Of a stretch of DNA of 64,000 nt, positions 5,330-60,223 are shown one piece after another. A program made the position numbers and the translations under genes. Every line of letters starts with the position of its first letter. Positions within the stretch are counted from its first letter, which is position 1. The DNA comes from Patescibacteria group bacterium (GTDB lineage Bacteria > Patescibacteriota > CPR2 > UBA1875): the NCBI GenBank assembly GCA_041737595.1, contig JBGSRK010000005.1, forward strand, positions 1,610 through 65,609. The letters are read 5' to 3'. The notes beneath the pieces are model-generated. The model saw only the letters and a list, made by a program, of their open reading frames with translations, did no database searches and had not been told where the DNA came from.

Positions 5330-6010
5330 ATGAGAATCAATAGATATATTGCAAGATCAGGAATAACCTCTCGCCGTAAAGCTGAGGAACTTATTCTTTC
5401 TGGCAAAGTATCAGTTGATGATAAAATTATAACCACACTCGCAACTGAAGTTGATGAAAAAAAATCTATTGTAAAAATTGATGGAAAAATAATATTACTT
5501 TCTAAACATATTTATTATCTTTTTAATAAACCAGTTGGTTATACTACTACAAAAAGTGATCCATACGCTCTACATACAATTTATGAATTATTACCAAAAA
5601 ATAATTCCCTTTTCGCTGTAGGTCGACTGGATCGTAACACTGCTGGTCTTATTTTAATTACTAACGATGGTAATTTTGCACAGAATATTATCCACCCAAA
5701 AATGAAAATCGAAAAAGAATATATTATAAGAACAAGGTTTCCTATTACTCGCGATCAATTAGATTTACTCGAAGGTGGGATTGAACTAGATGATGGGTTT
5801 GCAAAAATAAACTCTGTAAAAAAAATAAATGATAAAGAACTTTCTTTAATAATAGAGATGGGAAGAAATAGAATAGTAAGAAGATTAATCAAAGCAACTG
5901 GGAATGAGGTTTCTGGTTTGTTAAGAAATCGCATAGGGAAGATAGTTTTAAATATACCTGTTGGAAAATATAGAGAACTTACACAGAAAGAGGTTAAAGA
6001 TTTTATCTAA
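5330..6010 (+). CDS. RsuA/RluB-family pseudouridine synthase with S4 domain
   Basis: S4 RNA-binding N-terminus (ARSGITSRRKAEELI) and catalytic GRLDRNTAGLIL motif. Confidence 0.85.
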   Translation: MRINRYIARSGITSRRKAEELILSGKVSVDDKIITTLATEVDEKKSIVKIDGKIILLSKHIYYLFNKPVGYTTTKSDPYALHTIYELLPKNNSLFAVGRLDRNTAGLILITNDGNFAQNIIHPKMKIEKEYIIRTRFPITRDQLDLLEGGIELDDGFAKINSVKKINDKELSLIIEMGRNRIVRRLIKATGNEVSGLLRNRIGKIVLNIPVGKYRELTQKEVKDFI

Positions 6011-9649: not shown

Positions 9650-9692
9650 ACAAAAAGACAGCCCAGGGGGATGAGACTGTCTTTTTGTTTTC
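9650..9692 (+). terminator. Rho-independent terminator of pth
   Basis: Inverted repeat AAAAAGACAG...CTGTCTTTTT (10 bp) followed by TTTTGTTTT. Confidence 0.7.
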
Positions 9693-10112
9693 TCCCATCA
9701 ATAAACCGTGTCATACACTTGATCCGTTTCATTTTTAGACGGACGTTATTGTTGGGAGAGTCCCTCCGGCAAGCGAGTCGGCCTCAGGAGGGTGATGAGG
9801 TTTATTTGACCCAGCTTGCCAAAAGGGACACTTCCAGCAAATTTATTGATTTAATTTTCAAATTTTTTACCACATTTTATAAATCCGAGCGCGGTTACAA
9901 CCATTTTTTGGTCGACGTAGAAGTTTATCACATAAATTATTATTTGTCAACACTTTTTTTATGAATGTTGATAACCCCTCATAATAGATAATCTCTGACT
10001 AAATATAATAATATATTTTCACACTACATTACTACGTAGTAGCGTAGTGTCTAGGATATTAAACATAAAGACTATATTAATATATTTAAACTTAAGTGAT
10101 ATAATATTGCTT

Positions 10113-50617: not shown

Positions 50618-50646
50618 ATTATAGTGAATAATCAGACAAAAGTCAA
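50618..50646 (-). promoter_or_regulatory. Perfect-consensus sigma70 promoter TTGACT-N17-TATAAT driving rplC and the downstream r-protein operon, followed by a ~110-nt structured leader
   Basis: -35 at 50641-50646 and -10 at 50618-50623 on the minus strand. Confidence 0.6.
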
Positions 50647-51434
50647 GAATTTTTTACTAACTTCTTGCCTGCTCGATATCTTAAATATAATCTTGGATAG
50701 TTAAGAATATAAACAATTATACATAGAGGTTTTTGAAACGCAATTTTATGAGGCAAAAATGGCTCTCCGGTTGGATTAAATTTGAGTGTTCTTTTTTGAC
50801 CCGTTATATTTTCCCATATTTCTTTTTTATTAATTGTTTTGTTTGAAGAAATTTCTGTAAAAATTTTACCCATATCTGCTGGGAAAAAATGCATATCTGA
50901 CGCTCCAAATTTTAATACTTTATTATCTTTTTCAATATGTTCTTGTGCTTTTATGTTTCTAGATTCTCCTGTAAATGCATTAATTACTTCTATTGCATCA
51001 ATGTTAATCTCTTTATTATGTAAACCACGCAAAATACCCTTCCGGCCGAATGGGTGGGGAGCAACCACTGCACCTTTATACTTTTTGATTATTTTAATAA
51101 CCTCAGAAACATTTTTGAAATGTGGTATAAAGCCATTATTATATCTGTATTCTTTATAAAAATCTTTTATTTCTTGGATCTCATAAAAGTATGCAAGAAG
51201 TTCATATGGTAACCCTTTAATAGTAAATGTAAGTTCAATTCCGGGGAAAAAGATTATCCCAGCCTTCTCGGCATATTTTTCAGCTTTAATTGTCCCAATA
51301 ATTTCATTATGATCTGTGATTGAAAGTACTTTTATATTTTTATGTTTAGCATAAGCCACAATAAACCTAGGGAAATGTATCCCATCACTATTATTACTAT
51401 GAACATGTAAGTTAGCTTTATATGAGTATTCCAT
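50643..51434 (-). CDS. PHP-domain (polymerase/histidinol-phosphatase family) metal-dependent phosphoesterase
   Basis: N-terminal LHVHSNNSDG...ITDHN His motifs of the PHP fold. Confidence 0.8.
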   Translation of the reverse strand: MEYSYKANLHVHSNNSDGIHFPRFIVAYAKHKNIKVLSITDHNEIIGTIKAEKYAEKAGIIFFPGIELTFTIKGLPYELLAYFYEIQEIKDFYKEYRYNNGFIPHFKNVSEVIKIIKKYKGAVVAPHPFGRKGILRGLHNKEINIDAIEVINAFTGESRNIKAQEHIEKDNKVLKFGASDMHFFPADMGKIFTEISSNKTINKKEIWENITGQKRTLKFNPTGEPFLPHKIAFQKPLCIIVYILNYPRLYLRYRAGKKLVKNS

Positions 51435-51443
51435 AAATACTAC

Positions 51444-52658
51444 TTATTCATAACGGAGTGCTTCGATTGGATCTTTTTTAGCGGCGCGAAGAGCGGGCCA
51501 TAAGCCAAAAATTACACCTATTATGGTTGAGATTCCTATTGCAAGACCAACTACAGATGGAGTTATGGCGGGGGTCAAATCAGTTTTCGAAGCTACAACT
51601 CCTGAAACTGCAAATGAAATACCAAGCCCAATCAAACCACCAACCATTGTGACCATTACGGCTTCTATCAAAAATTGTAATGCAATGTCAAAACGTGTCG
51701 CACCAACTGCCTTCCGAAGACCTATTTCCTTTGTTCTTTCGGTGACAGTAACAAGCATAATATTCATAATTCCAATCCCACCAACAAGCAAGGATATTGA
51801 TGCAATTGCTGATACAAGAGTGGTTAACAACCCCAAAAGATCATCCAATAAACCAACGATATCATCTTGAGTAAGCACAGTGAAATCCTCTTCATTTTCA
51901 TGATTTTTAAGCATTGTGCTTTTTACGGACTCTTTTACATCGAGTACCTTATACCCGTCAGTTACTTTAATCATAATCCGTTGAATATTTACTTTATTTT
52001 GGTTTATCCTTGTGGCCGTATCAAATGGTATTGCAGCAAGAGTTGAAAATTGATCTCCAAAGACGCTAGATGCTTCAACTTCACTAAATACACCGATTAC
52101 CTTAAAATCTTCTTTCCCAACTTTTACAATTTTATTAACTGGGTCTTCATTTTCAAAAAGGTCTTTTTTTGTTTTTGGCCCTATAATTACAACATTACCT
52201 GATTTATTTGATTTAAAAGTAGCACCCGATTCTACCTTAATAATTTGTAATGTTTCCCCTATTTCGGGGTATGTCCCTATTATCATTGGGATAGTCTTTT
52301 TATCATTATATGATATTTCACCAGGGACAAGTGACATTGGTGCAATTTTATCAACTCCTTCTACTTCACTTATTTTATCCATATCACTTACAGTTAAAAC
52401 ATTCCCACTCACAAAATTTGCAGGATTTGTTTGCTGCATACCTTGAGGATTGTTTGTGTCTATTTTGCCAGCGACTACAAACAATAAATTAGAGCCGAAC
52501 CCTTTTACAAGACCCGAGACATCATTTTTTAAACCCTGCCCTAAAGAAATTAAAATTGTTACAGAAGATACTCCAATTACAATCCCAAGTACGGTTAAAA
52601 GACTTCTTACTTTATTACCAAAAATTGACATTAATGCACTTTTTATTCCCTCAATCAT
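51444..52658 (-). CDS. ABC transporter permease, FtsX/MacB family
   Basis: N-terminal TM, a large periplasmic domain, and a C-terminal FtsX 3-TM bundle. Confidence 0.85.
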   Translation of the reverse strand: MIEGIKSALMSIFGNKVRSLLTVLGIVIGVSSVTILISLGQGLKNDVSGLVKGFGSNLLFVVAGKIDTNNPQGMQQTNPANFVSGNVLTVSDMDKISEVEGVDKIAPMSLVPGEISYNDKKTIPMIIGTYPEIGETLQIIKVESGATFKSNKSGNVVIIGPKTKKDLFENEDPVNKIVKVGKEDFKVIGVFSEVEASSVFGDQFSTLAAIPFDTATRINQNKVNIQRIMIKVTDGYKVLDVKESVKSTMLKNHENEEDFTVLTQDDIVGLLDDLLGLLTTLVSAIASISLLVGGIGIMNIMLVTVTERTKEIGLRKAVGATRFDIALQFLIEAVMVTMVGGLIGLGISFAVSGVVASKTDLTPAITPSVVGLAIGISTIIGVIFGLWPALRAAKKDPIEALRYE

Positions 52659-53335
52659 TTTGCCTCCTTTATCAGCTTACCATCCATGATTTTATAGGTT
52701 CTTTTAGCATAATCTGCTATTTTTTGATCATGCGTAATAAGTATAATAGTCTTCCCCTTTTTATTTAAATCAACTAAAACTTTCATTATTTCTTGCCCAC
52801 TTTTTGAATCAAGATTTCCAGTGGGTTCATCAGCAAGTATTATATCAGGATCATTAATAAGAGCTCGCGCGATTGCAACTCTTTGAGTTTCGCCCCCTGA
52901 AAGTTCTGATGGCTTGTGTTTTATTCTATTTTTAAGACCAACTTCTGAAAGAAGATTAACAGCTCTTTCTTGAGCAGATTTTTTCCCAATTTTTTTATAG
53001 ATTGTTGGCATCACAACATTAGAAAGTGCTGTCATTTTATTCAAAAGATTAAACTGTTGGAAAATAAAACCAATTTTTTCGGAACGGATTTTAGCAAGCT
53101 TAGAATCTGGCATACTCATATTTATCTTTTTATTATCAATTAAAAGATCTCCAGAGGTTGGCCTATCAAGTAATCCTATTATGTGCATTAAGGTTGATTT
53201 GCCAGAGCCAGAGGGCCCCATAATAGCTATTATTTCTCCCTTTTCTACTTTAATAGAAATACCACAAACTGCGTTAACAGATAATTTACCTGATTTATAG
53301 GTTTTAGTAACATTTTTTAGTTCAATAATAGGCAT
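52655..53335 (-). CDS. ABC transporter ATP-binding protein (MacB/LolD-like)
   Basis: Walker A GPSGSGKST, signature LSGGETQRVAIARAL, Walker B ILADEPTGNLD. Confidence 0.9.
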   Translation of the reverse strand: MPIIELKNVTKTYKSGKLSVNAVCGISIKVEKGEIIAIMGPSGSGKSTLMHIIGLLDRPTSGDLLIDNKKINMSMPDSKLAKIRSEKIGFIFQQFNLLNKMTALSNVVMPTIYKKIGKKSAQERAVNLLSEVGLKNRIKHKPSELSGGETQRVAIARALINDPDIILADEPTGNLDSKSGQEIMKVLVDLNKKGKTIILITHDQKIADYAKRTYKIMDGKLIKEAK

Positions 53336-53336
53336 A

Positions 53337-54071
53337 TTATTTCCATTCCATTGTGGCCATCATTTTTTCAAAATAATTTGTAATTTCTGCTACAACTAAA
53401 TCTGTAGTACTTGTGCTTTCTGAATGGAAAAAATAATTATGGTTATTTTGAATTTGATAACCCGACCCAGTTTTAGGTATTGTAGAAATTGAATAACCAT
53501 TAAGATTAGCATTGTCACACATTAAATTTTCACCACTATTTAATGAATTATCTATCTCTTTTTTATTTGAAAGGATGAGTTTATTTGCCAATATTTCAGT
53601 TGAATAAGTAATATTCTTTTTAACACAAGTTCCTCCTCGACCAAATATTTCGTCCATATTTAATGAAATTGCATATTTTTTTTCCTGGTTATCAAAGATA
53701 ACATTATCAATAGAAAAAACATTTGAACCTACATAAGTACTACCACTGCTTGTCTCATTTTCACTAACAACAAAGGAGCTCGGGTATTTAATAGAAAAAT
53801 TATATTTAGTGCTTGTATACGTTTTCCAATCTTTCATTTCATCATTCGAAACAGACGAAGATGTCGTTTTATTAAAATTTAGTTTAGTAGAATAGTCTTC
53901 GTTATAATTTCTTGATCCTAAATACCAATATATTCCATAACCTATTAACGTTACAACAATTGCAAGAATTGAAAAAGCCGCAATAGTTTCTAAATGAAGA
54001 TTTTTCTTATTTATATCTTTTTCAACCTCTTTTTTAAATTCATCAACTTGTTTTTTCTCTTTTTCTGTCAT
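53337..54071 (-). CDS. Hypothetical membrane-anchored Ser/Asn-rich extracytoplasmic protein, cotranscribed with the ABC transporter
   Basis: N-terminal K/E-rich segment, then a TM (AAFSILAIVVTLIGYGIYWYL), then an S/T/N-rich domain. Confidence 0.5.
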   Translation of the reverse strand: MTEKEKKQVDEFKKEVEKDINKKNLHLETIAAFSILAIVVTLIGYGIYWYLGSRNYNEDYSTKLNFNKTTSSSVSNDEMKDWKTYTSTKYNFSIKYPSSFVVSENETSSGSTYVGSNVFSIDNVIFDNQEKKYAISLNMDEIFGRGGTCVKKNITYSTEILANKLILSNKKEIDNSLNSGENLMCDNANLNGYSISTIPKTGSGYQIQNNHNYFFHSESTSTTDLVVAEITNYFEKMMATMEWK

Positions 54072-54252: not shown

Positions 54253-54543
54253 TTATACCTCATACACGCACATCGTTACTTCGCCCAGACAAGCTGGTGC
54301 TTCAGCATGATATATCTTGCCTGTAGCGTGCACTTCGATTCGATAATGTAGAGTTACTCCTTCAAGATTACCGGAAAGAAGTGTGAACGACCCCTTAATT
54401 GAATCAAGAAGATTGCGCTCATAGAGAGCATCAAGCAACTCTCTTCTAACTCGAATCGTTCCATTTGTTGTCTCTTTACCATCGGCCCGATAGACCTTTG
54501 TGAAAAGTGGTTCCCTGTTGGAAACCGCAGCATCTGTCCCCAT
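54253..54543 (-). CDS. Small ORFan protein B4 (96 aa) in high-GC island B
   Basis: RBS AAGGGGG 6 nt before the ATG; own promoter TTGACG-N17-TATTAT at 54622-54650; GC about 45-48% versus about 30% background. Confidence 0.5.
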   Translation of the reverse strand: MGTDAAVSNREPLFTKVYRADGKETTNGTIRVRRELLDALYERNLLDSIKGSFTLLSGNLEGVTLHYRIEVHATGKIYHAEAPACLGEVTMCVYEV

Positions 54544-54621
54544 CTCGTTACCCCCTTAAACTGATGGAATGAGTTTTTTCGACATATGCTGTGGTGCTTG
54601 AGGCATTTAACAAGCAAAACA

Positions 54622-54650
54622 ATAATAACTTTAATTTTGAGCCACGTCAA
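54622..54650 (-). promoter_or_regulatory. Promoter TTGACG-N17-TATTAT for ORF B4
   Basis: -35 at 54645-54650 and -10 at 54622-54627 on the minus strand. Confidence 0.45.
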
Positions 54651-54669
54651 GCCAATATTATATTAACTT

Positions 54670-54702
54670 AGAAAAACACCCTAGGTATATTTCAACCTAG
54701 GG
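54670..54702 (-). terminator. Internal terminator after the B1-B2-B3 operon
   Basis: CCCTAGG-N10-CCTAGGG hairpin followed by UGUUUUU on the minus strand. Confidence 0.55.
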
Positions 54703-54725
54703 TAGTTGCTCAACCAACGAGGCTT

Positions 54726-55031
54726 TCACCGATGTATCCTTGGATCAATTTGGGAAGTGAGTTCAAAATCAAAATACCTTATCTTCCCCTCCCCTTCACA
54801 AACAGTCCGGTAGACACAGTTGAACCTTCGCCCCTTGTTTCCAATTTCGAAGACTCCAACCGAAGTCTGAAACGCCTCAGCCCGGGAACCAAGTCGAATC
54901 CCGAACTTAGCCAACGTTCTACGTGCCTCGGCTACTATTTCGGTACACGATTGGCATGGATCTTTCCCGACAAGAGGGACCGTAATGATGCCATAGTTGG
55001 TCCTTCTATAACCAGAAGTGTCGCACTCCAT
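54726..55031 (-). CDS. Small ORFan Cys-containing protein B3 (about 101 aa) in high-GC island B
   Basis: Start at MECD with a perfect RBS GAGGAGG 6 nt upstream, 9 nt after the B2 stop. The track ORF extends to 55055 from a less likely start. Confidence 0.5.
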   Translation of the reverse strand: MECDTSGYRRTNYGIITVPLVGKDPCQSCTEIVAEARRTLAKFGIRLGSRAEAFQTSVGVFEIGNKGRRFNCVYRTVCEGEGKIRYFDFELTSQIDPRIHR

Positions 55032-55042
55032 CTTGAGCCTCC

Positions 55043-55330
55043 TCACGTCGCCCATTGCTTGAGTATGACATTACCATCCTTGAGTGAACATGAATACACC
55101 GACATAAGGATGCCGGTTCGGGAATGAACCTGAATTCTGACAACTTGTGATAGATATCCACTTCGTGGGACGATGTTCTTATTGACATCGAATGCACGAA
55201 ATGACGTATCGCACTCGCTATCAGGAAGGCCATACCCATTGGAACGAATACGACGAAGTTCAGTGAAGACACACTCGAGCATATCTTCGTCAGGGCAACC
55301 TATGAGCTCAATGTTTATAGGCTCATTCAT
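55043..55330 (-). CDS. Small ORFan protein B2 (about 95 aa) in high-GC island B
   Basis: ATG overlaps the B1 stop in an ATGA coupling; RBS GAGGTGG upstream. The track ORF extends to 55366. Confidence 0.5.
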   Translation of the reverse strand: MNEPINIELIGCPDEDMLECVFTELRRIRSNGYGLPDSECDTSFRAFDVNKNIVPRSGYLSQVVRIQVHSRTGILMSVYSCSLKDGNVILKQWAT

Positions 55331-55605
55331 GCTGCCACCTCTTCGATACCCGAGATAGTATACCAAGCTTTCACCTGGTAAGTACTATCTGTCTTTTCGA
55401 CACGAGCTTCCACCTTTTGACCATCCGTATTAGTAAAATCAATACGAATGATTTTCTTGATGACGATTTTGACACTTACTGTCTTAAAACCGTAAACAAG
55501 AAGTAGAAGCTTCTCACAAGCAAGAGTCAGGGTACATATTTCTTTTGCGGTTGGACGTCCAGCTGAGGACTCAATCGCAAGATCAAGAATGTTATTCACA
55601 TCCAT
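55327..55605 (-). CDS. Small ORFan protein B1 (about 92 aa) in high-GC island B
   Basis: Start at MDVNN with a GGGGGG RBS. The longer track ORF (to 55650) would overlap the extended -10 element TGGTATATA at 55651-55659. Confidence 0.45.
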   Translation of the reverse strand: MDVNNILDLAIESSAGRPTAKEICTLTLACEKLLLLVYGFKTVSVKIVIKKIIRIDFTNTDGQKVEARVEKTDSTYQVKAWYTISGIEEVAA

Positions 55606-55687
55606 TTTGAGCCCCCCTTGGGTTCCTACCGTCTCTGACGTTATCGGCATTATATACCAAAAAAACTAATTTTAAAAGAATAAAAAA

Positions 55688-55717
55688 CAAAAAAAGCAGC
55701 TTTCGCTGCTTTTTTTG
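55688..55717 (-). terminator. Bidirectional terminator separating rpsJ from island B
   Basis: AGCAGC-TTTC-GCTGCT hairpin flanked by an A-run and a T-run. Confidence 0.65.
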
Positions 55718-55762: not shown

Positions 55763-56083
55763 TTACATTTTTATTTCGATATCAACACCCGCTGGTAGAG
55801 AAATATTCATTAGACTATCAATTGTCTTCGCATTTGGTTCAAGAATATCTATAAGTCTTTTATGAACTCTCATTTCAAACTGTTCTCGGGCATTTTTATC
55901 AACATTCGAAGCCCTAAGCACTGTTATTGGAGTTCGATCAGTTGGAAGCGGAATCGGACCAGAAATTTTTGAACCACTTCTTTGCGCGGTTTCAATTATT
56001 TGTTTAACAGACTGGTCAATGATCTTATGATCATATGCTTTCAGTTTAATTCTGATTCTTTGAGGTTTCTTTTCTTCTACCAT
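55763..56083 (-). CDS. rpsJ: 30S ribosomal protein S10
   Basis: [17 protein letters not shown]-terminal block. Confidence 0.95.
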
Positions 56084-56112: not shown

Positions 56113-57291
56113 TTATTTTGTAATCTTTGTTACTATACCCGCACCAACTGTTCTACCACCTTCTCGGATAGCGAACTTAAGACCTTGGTCCATAGCAATT
56201 GGTTGCATAAGTTTAACATTGAAAGTGATTTTATCACCTGGCATTACCATTTCGGTACCTGCAGGCAGTTCTACTTCTCCTGTAACATCTGTTGTTCGAA
56301 TATAGAATTGAGGTTTGTATCCTTTAAAGAATGGTGTATGTCGTCCACCTTCTTCTTTTGTTAGGATATAAACTTCTGCTTCAAATTCTGTGTGAGGTGT
56401 AATTGAACCTGGTTTTGCAAGAACCATACCACGTTCGATATCATCTTTTTCAATACCACGTAGTAAAAGTCCTGCGTTATCACCAGCTTGACCTTGGTCA
56501 AGTTGTTTTTTGAACATTTCTACACCAGTAACAACAGTTTTTCTTGTTTCTTTTATCCCAACAATTTCTACTTCTTCATTGATTTTAATAATACCTGATT
56601 CAATACGACCCGTAGCAACTGTTCCACGACCTTTAATCGAGAAAACATCTTCTACCGGCATAAGGAAAGGTTTATCTAAATCACGAACTGGTTCTGGGAT
56701 AAAATCATCAAGAGCTTTAACAAGTTCAAGTATAGATTCTTCATATTTAGCATCGCCTTCAAGAGCTTTAAGAGCTGAACCACGAATAATTGGAGCATTG
56801 TCTCCATCAAAATCATATTTTGAAAGCAATTCTCTAATTTCCATTTCAACAAGATCAAGCATTTCTTCATCGGCTACCATGTCACATTTATTCATAAAAA
56901 CAACAATTTTAGCTACACCAACTTGGTTAGCAAGCAAAATGTGTTCACGAGTTTGTGGCATTGGACCATCTGTTGCAGCTACAACTAATATAGCTCCGTC
57001 CATCTGAGCTGCGCCGGTAATCATGTTTTTAACATAATCTGCATGACCCGGACAGTCAACGTGTGCATAATGTCTTTTATCTGATTCATATTCAACGTGA
57101 GCGGTAGAAATAGTTATACCACGTTCACGTTCTTCAGGGGCTTTATCAATATTTTCGAAGGCAGTAAATTCTGCTTTACCGTCTTTTGAAAGAACTTTAG
57201 TAATAGCAGCTGTCAAAGTTGTTTTCCCATGGTCTACGTGACCTATAGTACCGACATTGACATGAGGTTTTGAACGATCAAATGTTGCCAT
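56113..57291 (-). CDS. tuf: Elongation factor Tu
   Basis: [23 protein letters not shown] and NKCD motifs. Confidence 0.97.
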
Positions 57292-57424
57292 TTGGGGTCC
57301 TCCTTTAGATTAACTTTATAGTTTAGACAATAAAACTTATCCACAATAAGTGGAATTGGTAACTAACTTTTTGTGTTACTTCGCTATTCTATTATAATTT
57401 GAGTTGATTTGCAAGTATTTTTAT

Positions 57425-57456
57425 CTAAAATGACAGGACCCCGCCGGTTGGCGGGG
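57425..57456 (-). terminator. GC-rich hairpin terminator at the downstream edge of island A
   Basis: ACCCCGCC-GGTT-GGCGGGGT stem; a weak U-tract follows on the minus strand. Confidence 0.5.
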
Positions 57457-57478
57457 TCAATGGACAAGAAGAGGATCA

Positions 57479-57656
57479 TTCAGTCGAGGTGCATGTATGA
57501 AAAGGCTGCGTCACGTTCTTCGCGAAAAGTGCGTACCTTCGGCGAAACCAGTGATGCCAACCAAATCGGAAATTCGATCAGCATACACATAATCGCGCTG
57601 AGTACGACGAGAGTGATCAAAACCGAATCGATCACCCATTCTTTGAATCTAAACAT
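57479..57656 (-). CDS. Small hydrophobic protein A2 (58 aa), second gene of high-GC island A
   Basis: Hand-translated MFRFKEWVIDSVLITLVVLSAIMCMLIEFPIWLASLVSPKVRTFREERDAAFSYMHLD. RBS GGAGG 5 nt upstream; starts 8 nt after the A1 stop; below the track size cutoff. Confidence 0.45.
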
Positions 57657-57666
57657 AGCGGCCTCC

Positions 57667-57987
57667 CTATCCTAGGCCCATTTCGTTGAGCTCGTCGAGA
57701 GTCGAGTTGTAGTCGGGCTCAAAGTTCGGTTTGATGAAACGGCCATGAATTCGAGATTCTTCGAGTTCCCTCACAAGCATATCATGTGCGGGCTTGTTGT
57801 GACATTGAGTACAAACGCTCGGCGACTCAAAGTCACAGTCGATACAGATCGCCGGATCAGGCCTGCCGGAGTTCTTTGCTCGCAACAGACGGATGACTCC
57901 GCCTGCCACAACTACTACAAAAGCGACCAAAAGAACCAAAACGATGGCACCTTCGGTTGTCGAGATAAGACCAATGAACCTCCCCAT
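57667..57987 (-). CDS. Membrane-anchored zinc-ribbon protein A1 (106 aa), first gene of high-GC island A
   Basis: N-terminal TM (AIVLVLLVAFVVVVAGGVIRLL), then CIDC-x8-CTQC; strong RBS GGGAGG; GC about 50%. Confidence 0.5.
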   Translation of the reverse strand: MGRFIGLISTTEGAIVLVLLVAFVVVVAGGVIRLLRAKNSGRPDPAICIDCDFESPSVCTQCHNKPAHDMLVRELEESRIHGRFIKPNFEPDYNSTLDELNEMGLG

Positions 57988-58038
57988 GTTTCCTCCCTTA
58001 GGTTCGCACGGATTTACACCGTGAATATTAATACGATT

Positions 58039-58066
58039 ATTATATAATATTTTTAAAATAATTCAA
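58039..58066 (-). promoter_or_regulatory. Promoter TTGAAT-N16-TATAAT for island A
   Basis: -35 at 58061-58066 and -10 at 58039-58044 on the minus strand; a small hairpin and the RBS follow. Confidence 0.5.
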
Positions 58067-58072
58067 TAACAC

Positions 58073-58099
58073 AAAAAGAGCCCACATGGGCTCTTTTTT
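58073..58099 (-). terminator. Palindromic terminator after fusA
   Basis: AGAGCCCA-CA-TGGGCTCT hairpin with flanking A and T runs. Confidence 0.7.
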
Positions 58100-58111
58100 A
58101 TAATTATTTTG

Positions 58112-60223
58112 TTATTCAGTTTCTAGATCTACTTCTGTTTCTGATTCTAATTTACTGCCACGTTTTGCTTTAATTTCTTCGGCAATGTTATTTGGAACTT
58201 CTTCATAATGGTCAAATTCCATTGCATAAGAAGCTCTTCCTTGAGTCATAGAACGAAGGGATGTTGCATAACCAAACATTTCTGAAAGTGGGACAAAAGC
58301 ATCTACCACTTTTGCACTAGCCCTATCTTCCATCTTTTGAATTCGGCCACGTTTTGAGTTAAGGTCACCCATAACATCACCCATAAATTCTTCAGGGGTT
58401 ACAACTTCTACTTTCATAACAGGCTCCATAATTACTGGTTTACCCTTTTTAACACCTTCTTGGAAAGCCATTGAACCTGCAATTTTAAAAGCCATTTCTG
58501 ATGAATCAACTTCGTGATATGAACCTTCAAGAAGTGTAACTTTAATATCTACAACTGGGTATCCAGCGATAACACCATTAGCCATAGCATCTTTAACCCC
58601 TTGTTCAACTGGTTTTATATATTCTTTTGGTACAGAACCACCAACAATTTTGTTTACGAATTCAAATCCTCCGCCTTGTTCCATCGGTTCAACTTCAAGC
58701 CAAACGTGACCATATTGACCACGACCACCAGTCTGTTTGATATATTTACCTTCAGCTTTATTAGCATTTTTAATTGTTTCACGGTAAGCAACTTGAGGTT
58801 TACCAACATTTGCCTCAACCTTAAATTCTCTTTTCATACGATCAACAATAATTTCAAGATGTAATTCACCCATACCACCAATAATTGTTTGGTTTGTATC
58901 TTCATCAGTTCTAACCACAAAAGTTGGATCTTCTTCTGCTAAACGAGAAAGTGCAACACCCATTTTTTCTTGGTCAGCTTTAGTTTTTGGTTCTATTGCA
59001 ATATGAATAACTGGATCAGGGAAAGTTATTGCCTCAAGTATTACTGGATTTGCAGCATCACAAAGTGTATCTCCAGTTGTAACTTTTTTCAAGCCAACTG
59101 CAGCTGCAATCTCTCCTGAATATACTTGATCAACATCTTCTCTCTGATTTGCATGTAATCTAATAATTCGGCCTAAACGCTCTTTTTCACCAGTGGTTGA
59201 ATTATGAACATATGAACCAGCCATAATTGTTCCAGAATATACACGGAAAAATGCGAGTTTACCAACAAATGGATCAGATGCAATTTTGAAAGCAAGAGCA
59301 GTAAATGGTTCTTCGTCAGAAGCATGTCTTTCAACCTCTTCGCCTGTCTTAACATCAATTGCCTTAATTGCAGGAACATCAAGTGGGTTTGGTAAAAAAT
59401 TTACGATAGCATCAAGTAATGTTTCTACTATTACTCCTCGTCCATCACCACCCATAATTGGAAAAAAATCACCGGCTAGAACAGATTTTCGAATAGCTGT
59501 AATAAGTTCTTCTTCGGTCAGTTCTCCCCCGTTAAGATATTTTTCCATTATAACTTCATCAGCTTCTACAGCTTTTTCTAAAAGCTCGTGTCTATATTTT
59601 TCGACTTTTTCTTTCATATCTTCAGGGATTTCAATTTCAGTTAATTCTTTATCTTTATAATCTGTATATTTGTATGCTTTTCTAGTAATAATATCGACAA
59701 CACCATTTATGGCTTGTTCAAAACCTATTGGTAATTGTATAGGATATGCATTTTTTGAAAGTCTTTCTTTTATTGAATCAAGGGATTTATAAAAATCTCC
59801 ACCAGTTTGATTTATTTTATTAATAAAACAAATTCGTGGGACATGATATTTATCAGCTTGGCGCCAAACTGTTTCAGATTGAGGTTCTACACCCATTTTC
59901 CCATCAAAAACCACAACTGCACCATCAAGCACTCGAAGTGAACGTTCAACTTCAACTGTAAAGTCCACGTGTCCTGGAGTATCAATAATATTTATTCTTT
60001 TTTGTTTCCAAAAACAAGTTGTTGCTGCAGAAGTAATTGTTATCCCACGTTCTCTTTCCTGTTCCATCCAATCCATAGTTGCTTCACCTTCGTGAACTTC
60101 ACCTATTTTATGAGTTTTACCAGTTCTATAAAGAACACCTTCTGTAACTGTGGTTTTACCGGCATCTATATGTGCGATAATACCAATATTTCTAGTATCT
60201 TTTAAGCTATATTCTCGAGCCAT
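58112..60223 (-). CDS. fusA: Elongation factor G
   Basis: [17 protein letters not shown] and full five-domain EF-G blocks. Confidence 0.97.

Follow-up and report, generated by a model that had tools for sequence, protein, structure and literature searches.

In the 64,000 nucleotides of Patescibacteria DNA analysed here (the window), fusA (EF-G) and tuf (EF-Tu) are separated by a cassette of two genes for small, predicted membrane proteins, P1 and P2. The best explanation, and one that we consider probable, is that the cassette occupies an inherited fusA–tuf slot with a conserved frame and a fast-turnover content of small membrane-protein genes. The slot, with the terminator of fusA on one side and the promoter of tuf on the other, would have arisen in the ancestor of the clade and been inherited since, in hosts that are uncultured and probably Patescibacteria-like bacteria. 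Its frame (promoter, 5'UTR with the Shine–Dalgarno sequence, SD, 3' end and terminator) would stay conserved while the inner genes change very rapidly, with gains, losses and probably exchange between strains.

Upstream of the slot lies fusA (58112..60223, minus strand, as are all features below unless stated; a 703-aa ORF) and downstream lies tuf (56113..57291; a 392-aa ORF), leaving a spacer of 820 nt (57292-58111). The GC content of the spacer core (57500-57950) is 0.49-0.51, against a window mean of 0.33, in agreement with an earlier note on this DNA that had described about 0.7 kb at roughly 50% GC between the two genes. The atypical composition claimed there is also borne out at third codon positions: GC3 of P1 and P2 is 0.55-0.56, with or without the stop codon, whereas the median over 75 window ORFs is 0.19, and GC1 and GC2 of P1 and P2 equal those of host genes. 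The premise that fusA and tuf are almost always adjacent holds in part; the gap is 21-220 nt in the sampled non-Patescibacteria loci but 538-3579 nt in several Patescibacteria-like genomes, so that the premise is weaker in that part of the tree. Window fusA shares 81-92% identity with fusA of clade relatives; for most of the other loci retrieved with tuf the figure is 56-68% (46% in one partial match). For tuf, identity is 84-96% within the clade and at most 78% to species representatives; taxonomically the closest matches are Saccharibacteria/Patescibacteria MAGs.

Read in the direction of transcription, the spacer begins with the fusA intrinsic terminator (AAAAAGAGCCCA..TGGGCTCTTTTT, 58073..58098, 11-bp stem), whose hairpin has a counterpart at the matching position in every clade locus aligned, that of L085 with nearly the same sequence. 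The cassette promoter, TTGAAT-16-TATAAT (58039..58066), matches the consensus at 10 of 12 positions; its elements (TTGA..-N-..ATATAAT) align among WIN (the locus of the window in the clade alignments), L081, L085, L087 and L089, and similar ones are found in L170 and L179. A 5'UTR hairpin follows (CACGG-TGTAAAT-CCGTG, 58007..58023, read from the sequence and the transcript fold), the position of which is kept in relatives with a different stem sequence (CACGGTG/CACCGTG in L081, GTGCT/AGCAC in L085, GTAGC/GCTAC in L170). The translation-initiation motif GAACCTAAGGGAGG (57992..58005), which carries the SD of P1, has the counterpart GAACCCAAGGGGAGG in L081, and the ATG of P1 comes directly after AAGGGAGGAAAC. 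Behind P2 the cassette terminator GACCCCGCCAACCGGCGGGGTC (57437..57458; 9-bp stem with eight GC pairs) runs into a T-run and aligns with the L081 terminator. A separate tuf promoter, TTGCAA-17-TAGAAT (57386..57414), is kept in all six aligned clade loci, as is, across the clade, a tuf leader hairpin, TCCACTTATTGTGGA, with TAAGTTTTATTGTC after it (57340..57354). The promoter, the GGGAGG-type ribosome-binding sites (strong SDs at both P1 and P2) and the terminators on both sides that the earlier note had listed were thus all found. These signals support a P1–P2 transcription unit of its own, bounded by terminators, and on this reading of the letters the segment at 57.4-58.1 kb would act as an independent unit of promoter, 5'UTR hairpin, P1, P2 and terminator.

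P1 (57667..57987) is a 106-aa protein recognized from its ORF, hydropathy, AlphaFold2 model and family alignment, with a single transmembrane (TM) segment (best 19-residue Kyte–Doolittle window, 3.23) and a C4 motif. AlphaFold2 models a helix at residues 11-39, with block-mean pLDDT of 83-94 over residues 11-30; residues 41-70 have pLDDT of 51-62 and lack strands, so that only the TM helix is reliably modelled. The cysteines at 48, 51, 59 and 62 give CxxC-x7-CxxC-x5-H; the length, the single TM helix and the two CxxC pairs noted earlier are therefore right, but the spacing is x7 and not x8. Across the seven sequences of the family C48, C51, E54, V58, C59, C62, H68 and L71 are invariant, and both CxxC pairs are present in the L179 variant as well. 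Two conserved CxxC pairs are what would be expected of a C4 zinc ribbon, to which the family can provisionally be assigned. The zinc-ribbon gene has a dN/dS of 0.14-0.18 among relatives and is thus real coding sequence. P2 (57480..57656) is a 58-aa, single-pass membrane protein by its ORF and hydropathy (2.53). Its GGGAGG starts within the TAG stop codon of P1 and ends 5 nt before the ATG, an overlap that suggests translational coupling of P1 and P2. The earlier description of two tightly linked genes, the second a 58-aa single-TM protein with an SD 5 nt upstream, accordingly holds for P2 as a real gene and, with the invariant four Cys, Glu and His and the low dN/dS, for the pair.

We infer a topology for P1 in which the N-terminus is outside, the TM helix spans about residues 11-39 and CxxC-x7-CxxC-x5-H is cytoplasmic. 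P1, the commonest occupant of the slot, would then be an N-out single-pass protein presenting a predicted Cys4 zinc knuckle, and then a helix, at the cytoplasmic face. P1 and P2 are most likely partners in a small complex in the membrane, where the zinc domain may bind or sequester a cytoplasmic partner. It is solely the turnover pattern described below that suggests an accessory role of conflict or immunity type for the slot genes, rather than one in translation.

An exhaustive phmmer search with P1 over 1.84 billion representative proteins returns only four true homologs (2e-20 or weaker), and a profile search with the P1 family adds two, giving seven detectable members in total; a single-sequence word-index search with P1 gives no match, although homologs are detectable by phmmer. 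P1 has no match in Pfam, PHROG, PADLOC, NCBIfam or the PDB, and nothing significant is found in Pfam, PHROGs, PADLOC or NCBIfam for P1, P2 and eight cassette proteins of relatives. The best weak Pfam resemblance of P1 is to the FeoB-associated Cys-rich membrane protein (PF12669), which likewise has an N-terminal TM segment followed by a short Cys-rich cytoplasmic segment; membership was rejected (E = 0.19, 12.5 bits against a cut-off of 27), the arrangement of cysteines being different and feoB absent from the neighbourhood. In the PDB, profile searching with the P1 sequence yields zinc-finger matches only, all non-significant (E 0.38-3.5). The top ones, for example the first half of MYND fingers and the zinc ribbon of ribosomal protein eL40, resemble P1 in their CxxC-x7/8-CxxC spacing, but these proteins are soluble and eukaryotic or archaeal, and E54, V58 and H68-D/E-x-L are specific to the P1 family by comparison. 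P2 has its only homologs in the cassette of L081, which encodes two paralogs (93 and 62 aa). In the L085 and L179 types, the 55- and 48-aa partner proteins have a common C-terminal aromatic-x-x-H-x-D pattern; homology of P2 to these partners is unsupported by HMM searches. Scanning 1.8 Mb of fetched loci with the P1-family HMM gives matches confined to fusA–tuf spacers, and sequence searches find no P1 homologs outside the clade. Phage and plasmid DNA searches with the cassette return only two spurious AT-rich matches of about 50 nt, and a degenerate P1 motif scan gives none in viral contigs and none in metagenome contigs, a collection that apparently lacks the short contig carrying the homolog P0002. 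The neighbourhood survey proposed in the earlier note thus reveals a tiny family, in fusA–tuf context where flanks are available, and no member on phages, on plasmids or elsewhere. A literature search found no such fusA–tuf cassette.

Among relatives (EF-Tu 84-95% identical) the zinc-ribbon gene is found in the fusA–tuf spacer wherever flanks are available (L081, L085 and L087-L089; in L082 the tuf flank alone), the contigs of L083, L084 and L086 being too short for either flank. The slot is found as well in look-ups that are unbiased because they were anchored on tuf (L170, tuf 92% identical; L179/GCA_002338125.1, tuf 87%). Contiguous fusA and tuf, which the earlier note had suggested looking for in other strains, do not appear in the clade: every clade relative examined has a filled slot, and the site is empty only in the nearest outgroup, L090 (fusA 73%), where the gap is 202 nt and there is no cassette. 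Alignments across the clade show homology in the promoter, 5'UTR, terminator and tuf promoter, and every cassette gene, relatives included, has a strong SD. The content varies: the cassettes fall into about eight independent types (many known from short contigs), in which the zinc-ribbon protein either is absent or comes with one to three single-pass membrane proteins that are unrelated. The zinc-ribbon protein is missing from the L170-type cassette and without a TM helix in L179, so P1 is not essential to the slot. Gene callers miss several cassette genes, for example the zinc-ribbon ORF of L179. Divergence of the zinc-ribbon gene broadly tracks that of the hosts, with a sharp local departure. 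The C-terminal part of the fusA protein and the N-terminal part of the tuf protein do not differ between L085 and L089 (dS 0.03-0.19), whereas the zinc-ribbon proteins of the two are 81% identical with a dS of 0.70, L089 lacks one cassette gene of L085 and the region after fusA is scrambled between the two; near-identical hosts that differ so sharply within the cassette mark the site as a local hot spot of variation.

The composition, the presence of its own promoter and terminators, and the orphan status of P1 and P2 would each fit a foreign, GC-richer two-gene fragment that landed between fusA and tuf in the source genome or a very recent ancestor and has yet to ameliorate, which is how the earlier note had read the segment. 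Homologous cassettes and frame at the matching site in every relative examined, in hosts that differ by 5-18% in tuf/fusA, largely refute an insertion private to the source genome, and a recent arrival of this kind is now improbable. Between the cassettes of the window and L081, synonymous sites have reached saturation (pS 0.79), yet GC3 is still high in the two cassettes and low in their hosts. The spacer contains neither an ORF for an integrase or transposase nor a direct repeat, and nothing matches in phages, plasmids or viral contigs. The sole flanking inverted repeat, of 12 nt, was considered as a pair of terminal repeats and rejected, being at chance level and not conserved in L081. The earlier note had set a lineage-wide pair with GC like that of its neighbours against an insertion; what is found is conservation across the lineage with a GC content unlike the neighbours'. 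Cassette GC3 is 0.55-0.73 whatever the host GC3 (0.15-0.5), an excess of +0.1 to +0.4, and an excess that is stable despite saturated synonymous divergence is not explained by simple vertical descent either.

Other readings concern what the genes do. P2, or another of the small TM proteins, could be a membrane-damaging toxin or holin with P1 or an antisense RNA as its antidote or regulator in an addiction module. The small single-pass proteins with basic juxtamembrane, cytoplasmic tails resemble type I toxins and holins in size and topology (P2, with 58 aa, one TM and a hydropathy of 2.53, is like the small hydrophobic peptides of type I systems as a physical property only), the two genes are tightly coupled, gene content and sequence change quickly, and a weak promoter-like site on the plus strand (57404-57431, nine of 12 consensus positions) faces the cassette 3' end. 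We nevertheless hold this reading to be unlikely, if less so than a recent insertion: no toxin–antitoxin, Abi, holin or defence model matches, the -35 element of the antisense site is not conserved in L081 and so, unlike in type I systems, there is no conserved antisense RNA, no endolysin is present in the slot or its flanks, phage context is absent from DNA and protein searches, a strong, constitutive-looking promoter near consensus with consensus SDs is unusual for an unrepressed toxin, and the coding-region mRNA is no more structured than that of tuf in the window (z = -1.39 against -1.45). Still less probable is a membrane-anchored, anti-sigma-like regulator that uses its zinc domain to retain a factor of transcription or translation at the membrane, or another sequestration factor of this kind. 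A putative cytoplasmic Cys4 domain on one TM helix next to translation genes is what such a regulator would look like, but the ZAS signature HxxxCxxC is absent from P1 and the domain order is reversed, since the ZAS motif is N-terminal, cytoplasmic and ahead of the TM helix and in P1 the TM helix precedes CxxC-x7-CxxC-x5-H. There is no Pfam match to ZAS or zf-HC2, no sigma factor gene adjoins the cassette in the window (the neighbours are fusA, tuf and rpsJ) or in the loci of relatives, and relatives of the L170 type do without the zinc-ribbon gene. The anti-sigma, toxin–antitoxin and holin analogies raised in the earlier note are thus unsupported by any library or gene context. Least probable of all, to the point of being very doubtful, is a mainly non-coding or cis-regulatory segment, such as a structured RNA or a tuf attenuator, with ORFs that are by-products of high GC. 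It would draw on the full-transcript fold z-scores (-2.9, and -3.7 in L081), opposite-strand ORFs of 88 and 100 aa and the place of the cassette directly upstream of tuf. The low dN/dS with invariant Cys and His, the strong SD at every gene, a terminator that ends the cassette ahead of the separate, conserved tuf promoter, and the absence of an Rfam match for the cassette all speak against it. RNA structure was likewise rejected as the cause of the high GC, since for the coding region alone the z-score shrinks to -1.4 in the window, ordinary there and equal to that of tuf; coding-region z-scores are inconsistent across relatives.

The inherited slot may have a companion in the window. After rpsJ lies island B (54253..55700), a second slot with four small soluble ORFs (55327-55605, 55043-55330, 54726-55031 and 54253-54543), each with a strong SD, and with promoters and terminators of its own. 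The link between the two that the earlier note had drawn from composition holds: GC3 of island B is 0.35-0.48, the layout of promoter, hairpin, SD and GC-rich terminator is common to both, and the 14-nt motif GAACCYAAGGGRGG has two matches where 0.05 are expected, confined to the start of the fusA–tuf cassette (57992..58005) and to island B (55612-55625), where it precedes the first gene. The first terminator of island B is homologous to the terminator of the L170 slot. Its proteins have no homologs in the loci of relatives, in PHROGs or in phages. A more speculative extension, which we regard as possible but rather unlikely, would make both slots dedicated, clade-wide expression sites within the string of ribosomal genes, into which small-protein genes are inserted and rapidly exchanged as in a miniature cassette system that lacks a recognizable recombinase, with the zinc-ribbon protein at the centre of a new module for conflict or immunity in ultra-small bacteria. 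Either selection or GC-biased gene conversion, the latter at a recombination hot spot, would then actively keep synonymous GC far above the genomic level.

The fusA–tuf slot can be compared with the general concept of islets that vary from strain to strain, sit among conserved core genes and are replaced via recombination in their conserved flanks. Like them, it combines a conserved frame with variable content, a jump in divergence between near-identical hosts and atypical composition. Unlike them, it is tiny (0.6-0.9 kb) and set within the str/S10 gene string, has its own conserved promoter, UTR and terminator, encodes only proteins of about 40-110 aa and is GC-richer than its host, not AT-richer, and recombination in it is putative. 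Among the features of a genomic island the slot has the atypical composition and lacks an empty site in close relatives, mobility genes and a donor homolog. Other Patescibacteria (L021, L023, L036 and L074) encode a small acidic protein at the site of P1/P2 between fusA and tuf, but this protein is soluble (MNxx..KKTGDRIxxFD..), its GC is like that of the host, and HMM comparison reveals no resemblance to P1 or P2.

P1 and P2 fit no described family, and that of P1 is very rare, with its few members among some 1.8 billion representative proteins. Standard amelioration of foreign DNA fails to predict a stable GC3 excess, so the locus could serve as a test case, for bacteria, between GC-biased gene conversion and selection on synonymous sites. 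With hypervariable content in a conserved frame, between two of the most conserved genes of bacteria, the slot would be an unusually clean natural system in which to follow the origin, turnover and exchange of tiny membrane proteins in reduced genomes.

Every gene in this part of the window (rpoC, rpsL, rpsG, fusA, tuf and rpsJ) lies on the minus strand, and rplC and the remaining S10 operon begin ~5.3 kb of extra genes beyond rpsJ (55763-56083). fusA (58112-60223) and tuf (56113-57291) are separated by an 820 nt spacer, the core of which has 49-51% GC versus the window average of 33%. On the minus strand, in 5' to 3' order, the spacer opens with the fusA terminator (58098..58073), followed by a near-consensus promoter (TTGAAT-16-TATAAT, 58066..58039), a small 5'UTR hairpin (58023..58007), GAACCTAAGGGAGG located 4 nt before the ATG of P1 (106 aa, 57987..57667), then P2 (58 aa, 57656..57480) and a terminator with a GC-rich hairpin (57458..57437). 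Directly 3' of this terminator tuf has a promoter of its own (TTGCAA-17-TAGAAT, 57414..57386), followed within 57340-57414 by the hairpin TCCACTTATTGTGGA and a U-rich tract, TAAGTTTTATTGTC. The GGGAGG of P2 starts within the TAG stop codon of P1 and ends 5 nt ahead of the P2 ATG. The cassette is an insulated transcription unit and its two genes are translationally coupled. The earlier note had described such a module, with its own promoter, flanking terminators and a zinc-ribbon (ZnR) membrane protein linked to a small membrane protein; this holds in all respects except the cysteine spacing, which is CxxC-x7-CxxC and not x8. A perfect 12-nt inverted repeat, CTTTTTGTGTTA / TAACACAAAAAG (57367-57378, 58067-58078), flanks the cassette; it does not exceed chance expectation in this AT-rich region, is not kept in the related locus L081 and is probably meaningless.

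P1 crosses the membrane with one helix and carries an invariant Cys4 motif, after which a further helix is predicted at residues 65-80. Its one strongly hydrophobic segment (Kyte-Doolittle 3.23) is matched by a helix over residues 11-39 in the AlphaFold2 model (block-mean pLDDT 83-94 over residues 11-30), after which come a basic stretch and cysteines 48, 51, 59 and 62. P2 likewise has a single hydrophobic segment (2.53) and then a basic stretch. Neither protein has a match in Pfam, PHROGs, PADLOC, NCBIfam or PDB sequences, and a fast word-index search with P1 returned nothing. Exhaustive phmmer against 1.84 billion representatives yielded four true P1 homologs [P0001 (2e-20), P0002, P0003 and P0005], and a profile search two further ones (P0006 and P0007). 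P0004 (E 1.8e-4) was set aside; it is a repetitive multi-domain protein of 396 aa that aligns only with P1 residues 74-98, outside the zinc motif. The seven family sequences share the N-terminal TM helix and invariant C48, C51, E54, V58, C59, C62, H68 and L71. Basic residues follow the helix in all members, which by the positive-inside rule would place the short N-terminus of P1 outside and the zinc domain in the cytoplasm; the need of a Cys4 zinc site for reducing conditions points the same way. P2 would be oriented likewise and is probably the membrane partner of P1.

Wherever flanking sequence exists, contig look-ups place the ZnR gene of the homologs between fusA and tuf. Both flanks are visible in L081, and tuf downstream of the ZnR gene in L082; L085, a 38-kb contig, reads rpoB-rpoC-rpsL-rpsG-fusA, cassette, tuf-rpsJ, and L087, L088 and L089 have the same arrangement. 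A family HMM scanned over 184 sequences (1.8 Mb, including 160 outgroup str-operon loci) matches only the fusA-tuf spacers of homolog loci and, in L179-L182, an uncalled ORF of that spacer. In L179/L180 (2872-3195 in GCA_002338125.1, DDHN01000008.1) this ORF of 107 aa, not called as a gene in the source annotation, carries the family zinc motif (CVGC..E....CPSC.....HE.L) with extra N-terminal cysteines and without a TM helix. Two look-ups were anchored on EF-Tu alone to avoid bias towards loci already known for the ZnR gene; they gave L170 (tuf 92% identical to the window) with a spacer of 965 nt and L179/L180 (a public MAG, tuf 87%) with one of 1045 nt, each holding a cassette of the same build. 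Identity to the window is 92% (fusA) and 93% (tuf) for L081, 96% for L082 (N-terminal part of tuf), and 81-82% (fusA) and 84% (tuf, full length in L085 and L087) for L085 and L087-L089. The best species-representative genomes, Saccharibacteria or Patescibacteria MAGs, reach at most 78% for tuf and 68% for fusA, and the best metagenome contig (L090, fusA 73%) has a 202 nt gap and no cassette. The hosts form a clade, and the fusA-tuf slot is a feature of that clade.

Nucleotide alignment shows the cassette frame to be homologous across the clade. The aligning elements are the -35/-10 (TTGA...ATATAAT), the 5'UTR hairpin (pairing kept, stem sequence differing between lineages), the Shine-Dalgarno (SD) context [GAACC[C/T]AAGGG[G/A]G in the window and L081, GAAACTTGAA...GG in L170 and L179], the terminator, and the tuf promoter and leader. 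The tuf promoter, hairpin and tract are kept in every clade locus aligned; hairpin and tract may form a tuf leader or attenuator. The final genes of the window and L081 cassettes are identical over their last 17 nt (ACATGCACCTCGACTGA), though the proteins are only 27% identical.

The content of the frame varies. Beside the ZnR gene, accompanied by P2 in the window, L081 has two P2 paralogs (93 and 62 aa), L082 a two-TM protein of 79 aa and L083 a 43-aa TM protein. In L085 a 55-aa TM protein precedes the ZnR protein and 47- and 57-aa TM proteins follow it; L087 has 55-aa TM, ZnR and 48-aa TM, and L089 ZnR, 47-aa TM and 57-aa TM. L179 encodes 50- and 48-aa TM proteins, the anchorless ZnR variant and a 37-aa TM protein; L170 lacks ZnR and has TM proteins of 71 and 38 aa. 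Nearly all partners span the membrane once and have a strongly basic segment behind the helix. P2 homologs are detectable only in L081, and the 55/48-aa partners are by HMM a family separate from P2.

ZnR divergence broadly tracks that of the hosts, with ZnR and tuf identities of 46-54% and 93% (window vs L081), about 35% and 84% (window vs L085), and 81% and 98% (L085 vs L087), a pattern that fits inheritance combined with very fast evolution. Between L085 and L089 the C-terminal fusA and N-terminal tuf proteins are identical (dS 0.19 and 0.03), and the ZnR proteins only 81% identical (dS 0.70); in L089 the 55-aa gene is absent, the region past the fusA terminator is rearranged, and identity recovers towards tuf. 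This looks like recombination, with replacement by an old divergent allele, rather than a burst of positive selection, because dN/dS stays low. The locus is a hot spot of variation.

The median GC3 of the 75 window ORFs is 0.19 (fusA 0.15, tuf 0.18), and that of P1 and P2 is 0.55-0.56 depending on how stop codons are counted, which by our own arithmetic exceeds the host value by ~7-9 binomial standard deviations (106 and 58 codons). GC1 and GC2 match host genes, so the excess lies at synonymous sites and does not follow from amino-acid content. An origin of the ORFs as chance products of high GC is excluded by a ZnR dN/dS of 0.14-0.18 (among L085, L087 and L089), the invariant cysteines and histidine, and a strong SD before every gene. 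Cassette and host GC3 are 0.55-0.56 and 0.15-0.18 in the window, 0.61-0.63 and 0.18-0.23 in L081, 0.59-0.62 and 0.29-0.34 in L170, and 0.62-0.73 and 0.47-0.51 in L085. Synonymous sites are saturated between the cassettes of the window and L081 (pS 0.79) and both hosts are AT-rich, so cassette GC3 behaves as if at its own equilibrium rather than as that of foreign DNA yet to ameliorate. Selection on mRNA structure was rejected as the cause: full-transcript fold z-scores of -2.9 and -3.7 stem largely from the terminator and 5' hairpin, the coding region alone scores -1.39 in the window cassette versus -1.45 in tuf, and relatives are inconsistent (sense and antisense -1.8 and -2.5 in L081, -3.25 and -0.5 in L085). 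Three explanations remain: GC-ending codons, rare in this genome, may be selected for; gene conversion may be GC-biased at a hot spot of recombination; or cassettes may be imported repeatedly from clade members that are GC-richer and unsampled.

The remaining clear GC3 outliers in the window are the four ORFs of island B (0.35-0.48) and one doubtful ORF at 9671-9964. Island B (54253-55700, minus strand) follows rpsJ and encodes four small soluble proteins (92, 95, 101 and 96 aa) with strong SDs. A host-type terminator, a promoter, a 5'UTR hairpin, GAACCCAAGGGGGG and three coupled ORFs are succeeded by a terminator, another promoter, the fourth ORF and a GC-rich terminator. The ORFs match nothing in Pfam, PHROGs or phages, and homologs are absent from relatives. 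Within the window, the 14-nt motif GAACCYAAGGGRGG is confined to two places, the heads of the fusA-tuf cassette and of island B (0.05 occurrences expected). At the same position L170 has a single 92-aa gene (5454-5732, GC3 0.69 versus 0.3 for the host) unrelated in sequence to the island B ORFs; its terminator (CCCCGGG-TTGAGATATA-CCCGGGG) matches the first of island B (CCCTAGG-TTGAAATATA-CCTAGGG), the differences in the stem being compensatory. Island B represents a second such slot, and the suspicion in the earlier note that the islands are related gains support from the shared frame type, motif included, and composition; the proteins are not shared. The ~5.3 kb rpsJ-rplC gap also holds genes for a 244-aa membrane protein, an ABC ATPase, a MacB/FtsX-type permease and a PHP-domain protein (50643-54071, minus strand). 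L085 and L179 also have the PHP gene immediately before rplC; L170 conserves the ABC/FtsX pair, followed by the PHP gene, where the fetched locus ends short of rplC. Elsewhere in the window (9650-9960), a terminator (AAAAGACAG...CTGTCTTTT) precedes ~260 nt at 43% GC whose sole ORF (97 aa, GC3 0.43) begins within the terminator and is unconvincing. The stretch has no Rfam match at E <0.1; it may hold an undescribed RNA or form a further slot for small genes.

P1 belongs to none of the families tested. Zinc-containing anti-sigma factors (ZAS), type I and type II toxin-antitoxin systems, holins and a recent island each have at least one defining feature that was looked for and is missing here. 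The closest concept is the strain-variable islet between core genes, from which the cassette differs in its small size, conserved expression frame, exclusively very small protein cargo and stable GC-rich synonymous composition. Nothing was found in support of a role in translation itself. In other Patescibacteria an unrelated conserved small acidic protein with host-like GC (N-terminus MNxxxxKxIxLVKKTGDRIxxFD...EYE; L021 5482-5877, L023 3897-4319, L036 5579-5824, L074 5550-5831) lies between fusA and tuf, which therefore are often not contiguous in the superphylum. We regard the anatomical and evolutionary account of the cassette as somewhat better than an even bet, and any specific function as doubtful. 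The protein family at the cassette core is new and very rare. The module would be accessory; its ZnR gene can be lost or lose its anchor. The fusA-tuf position may simply be a tolerated, well-insulated site, and the rapid turnover there would resemble that of conflict, immunity or envelope-interaction loci.
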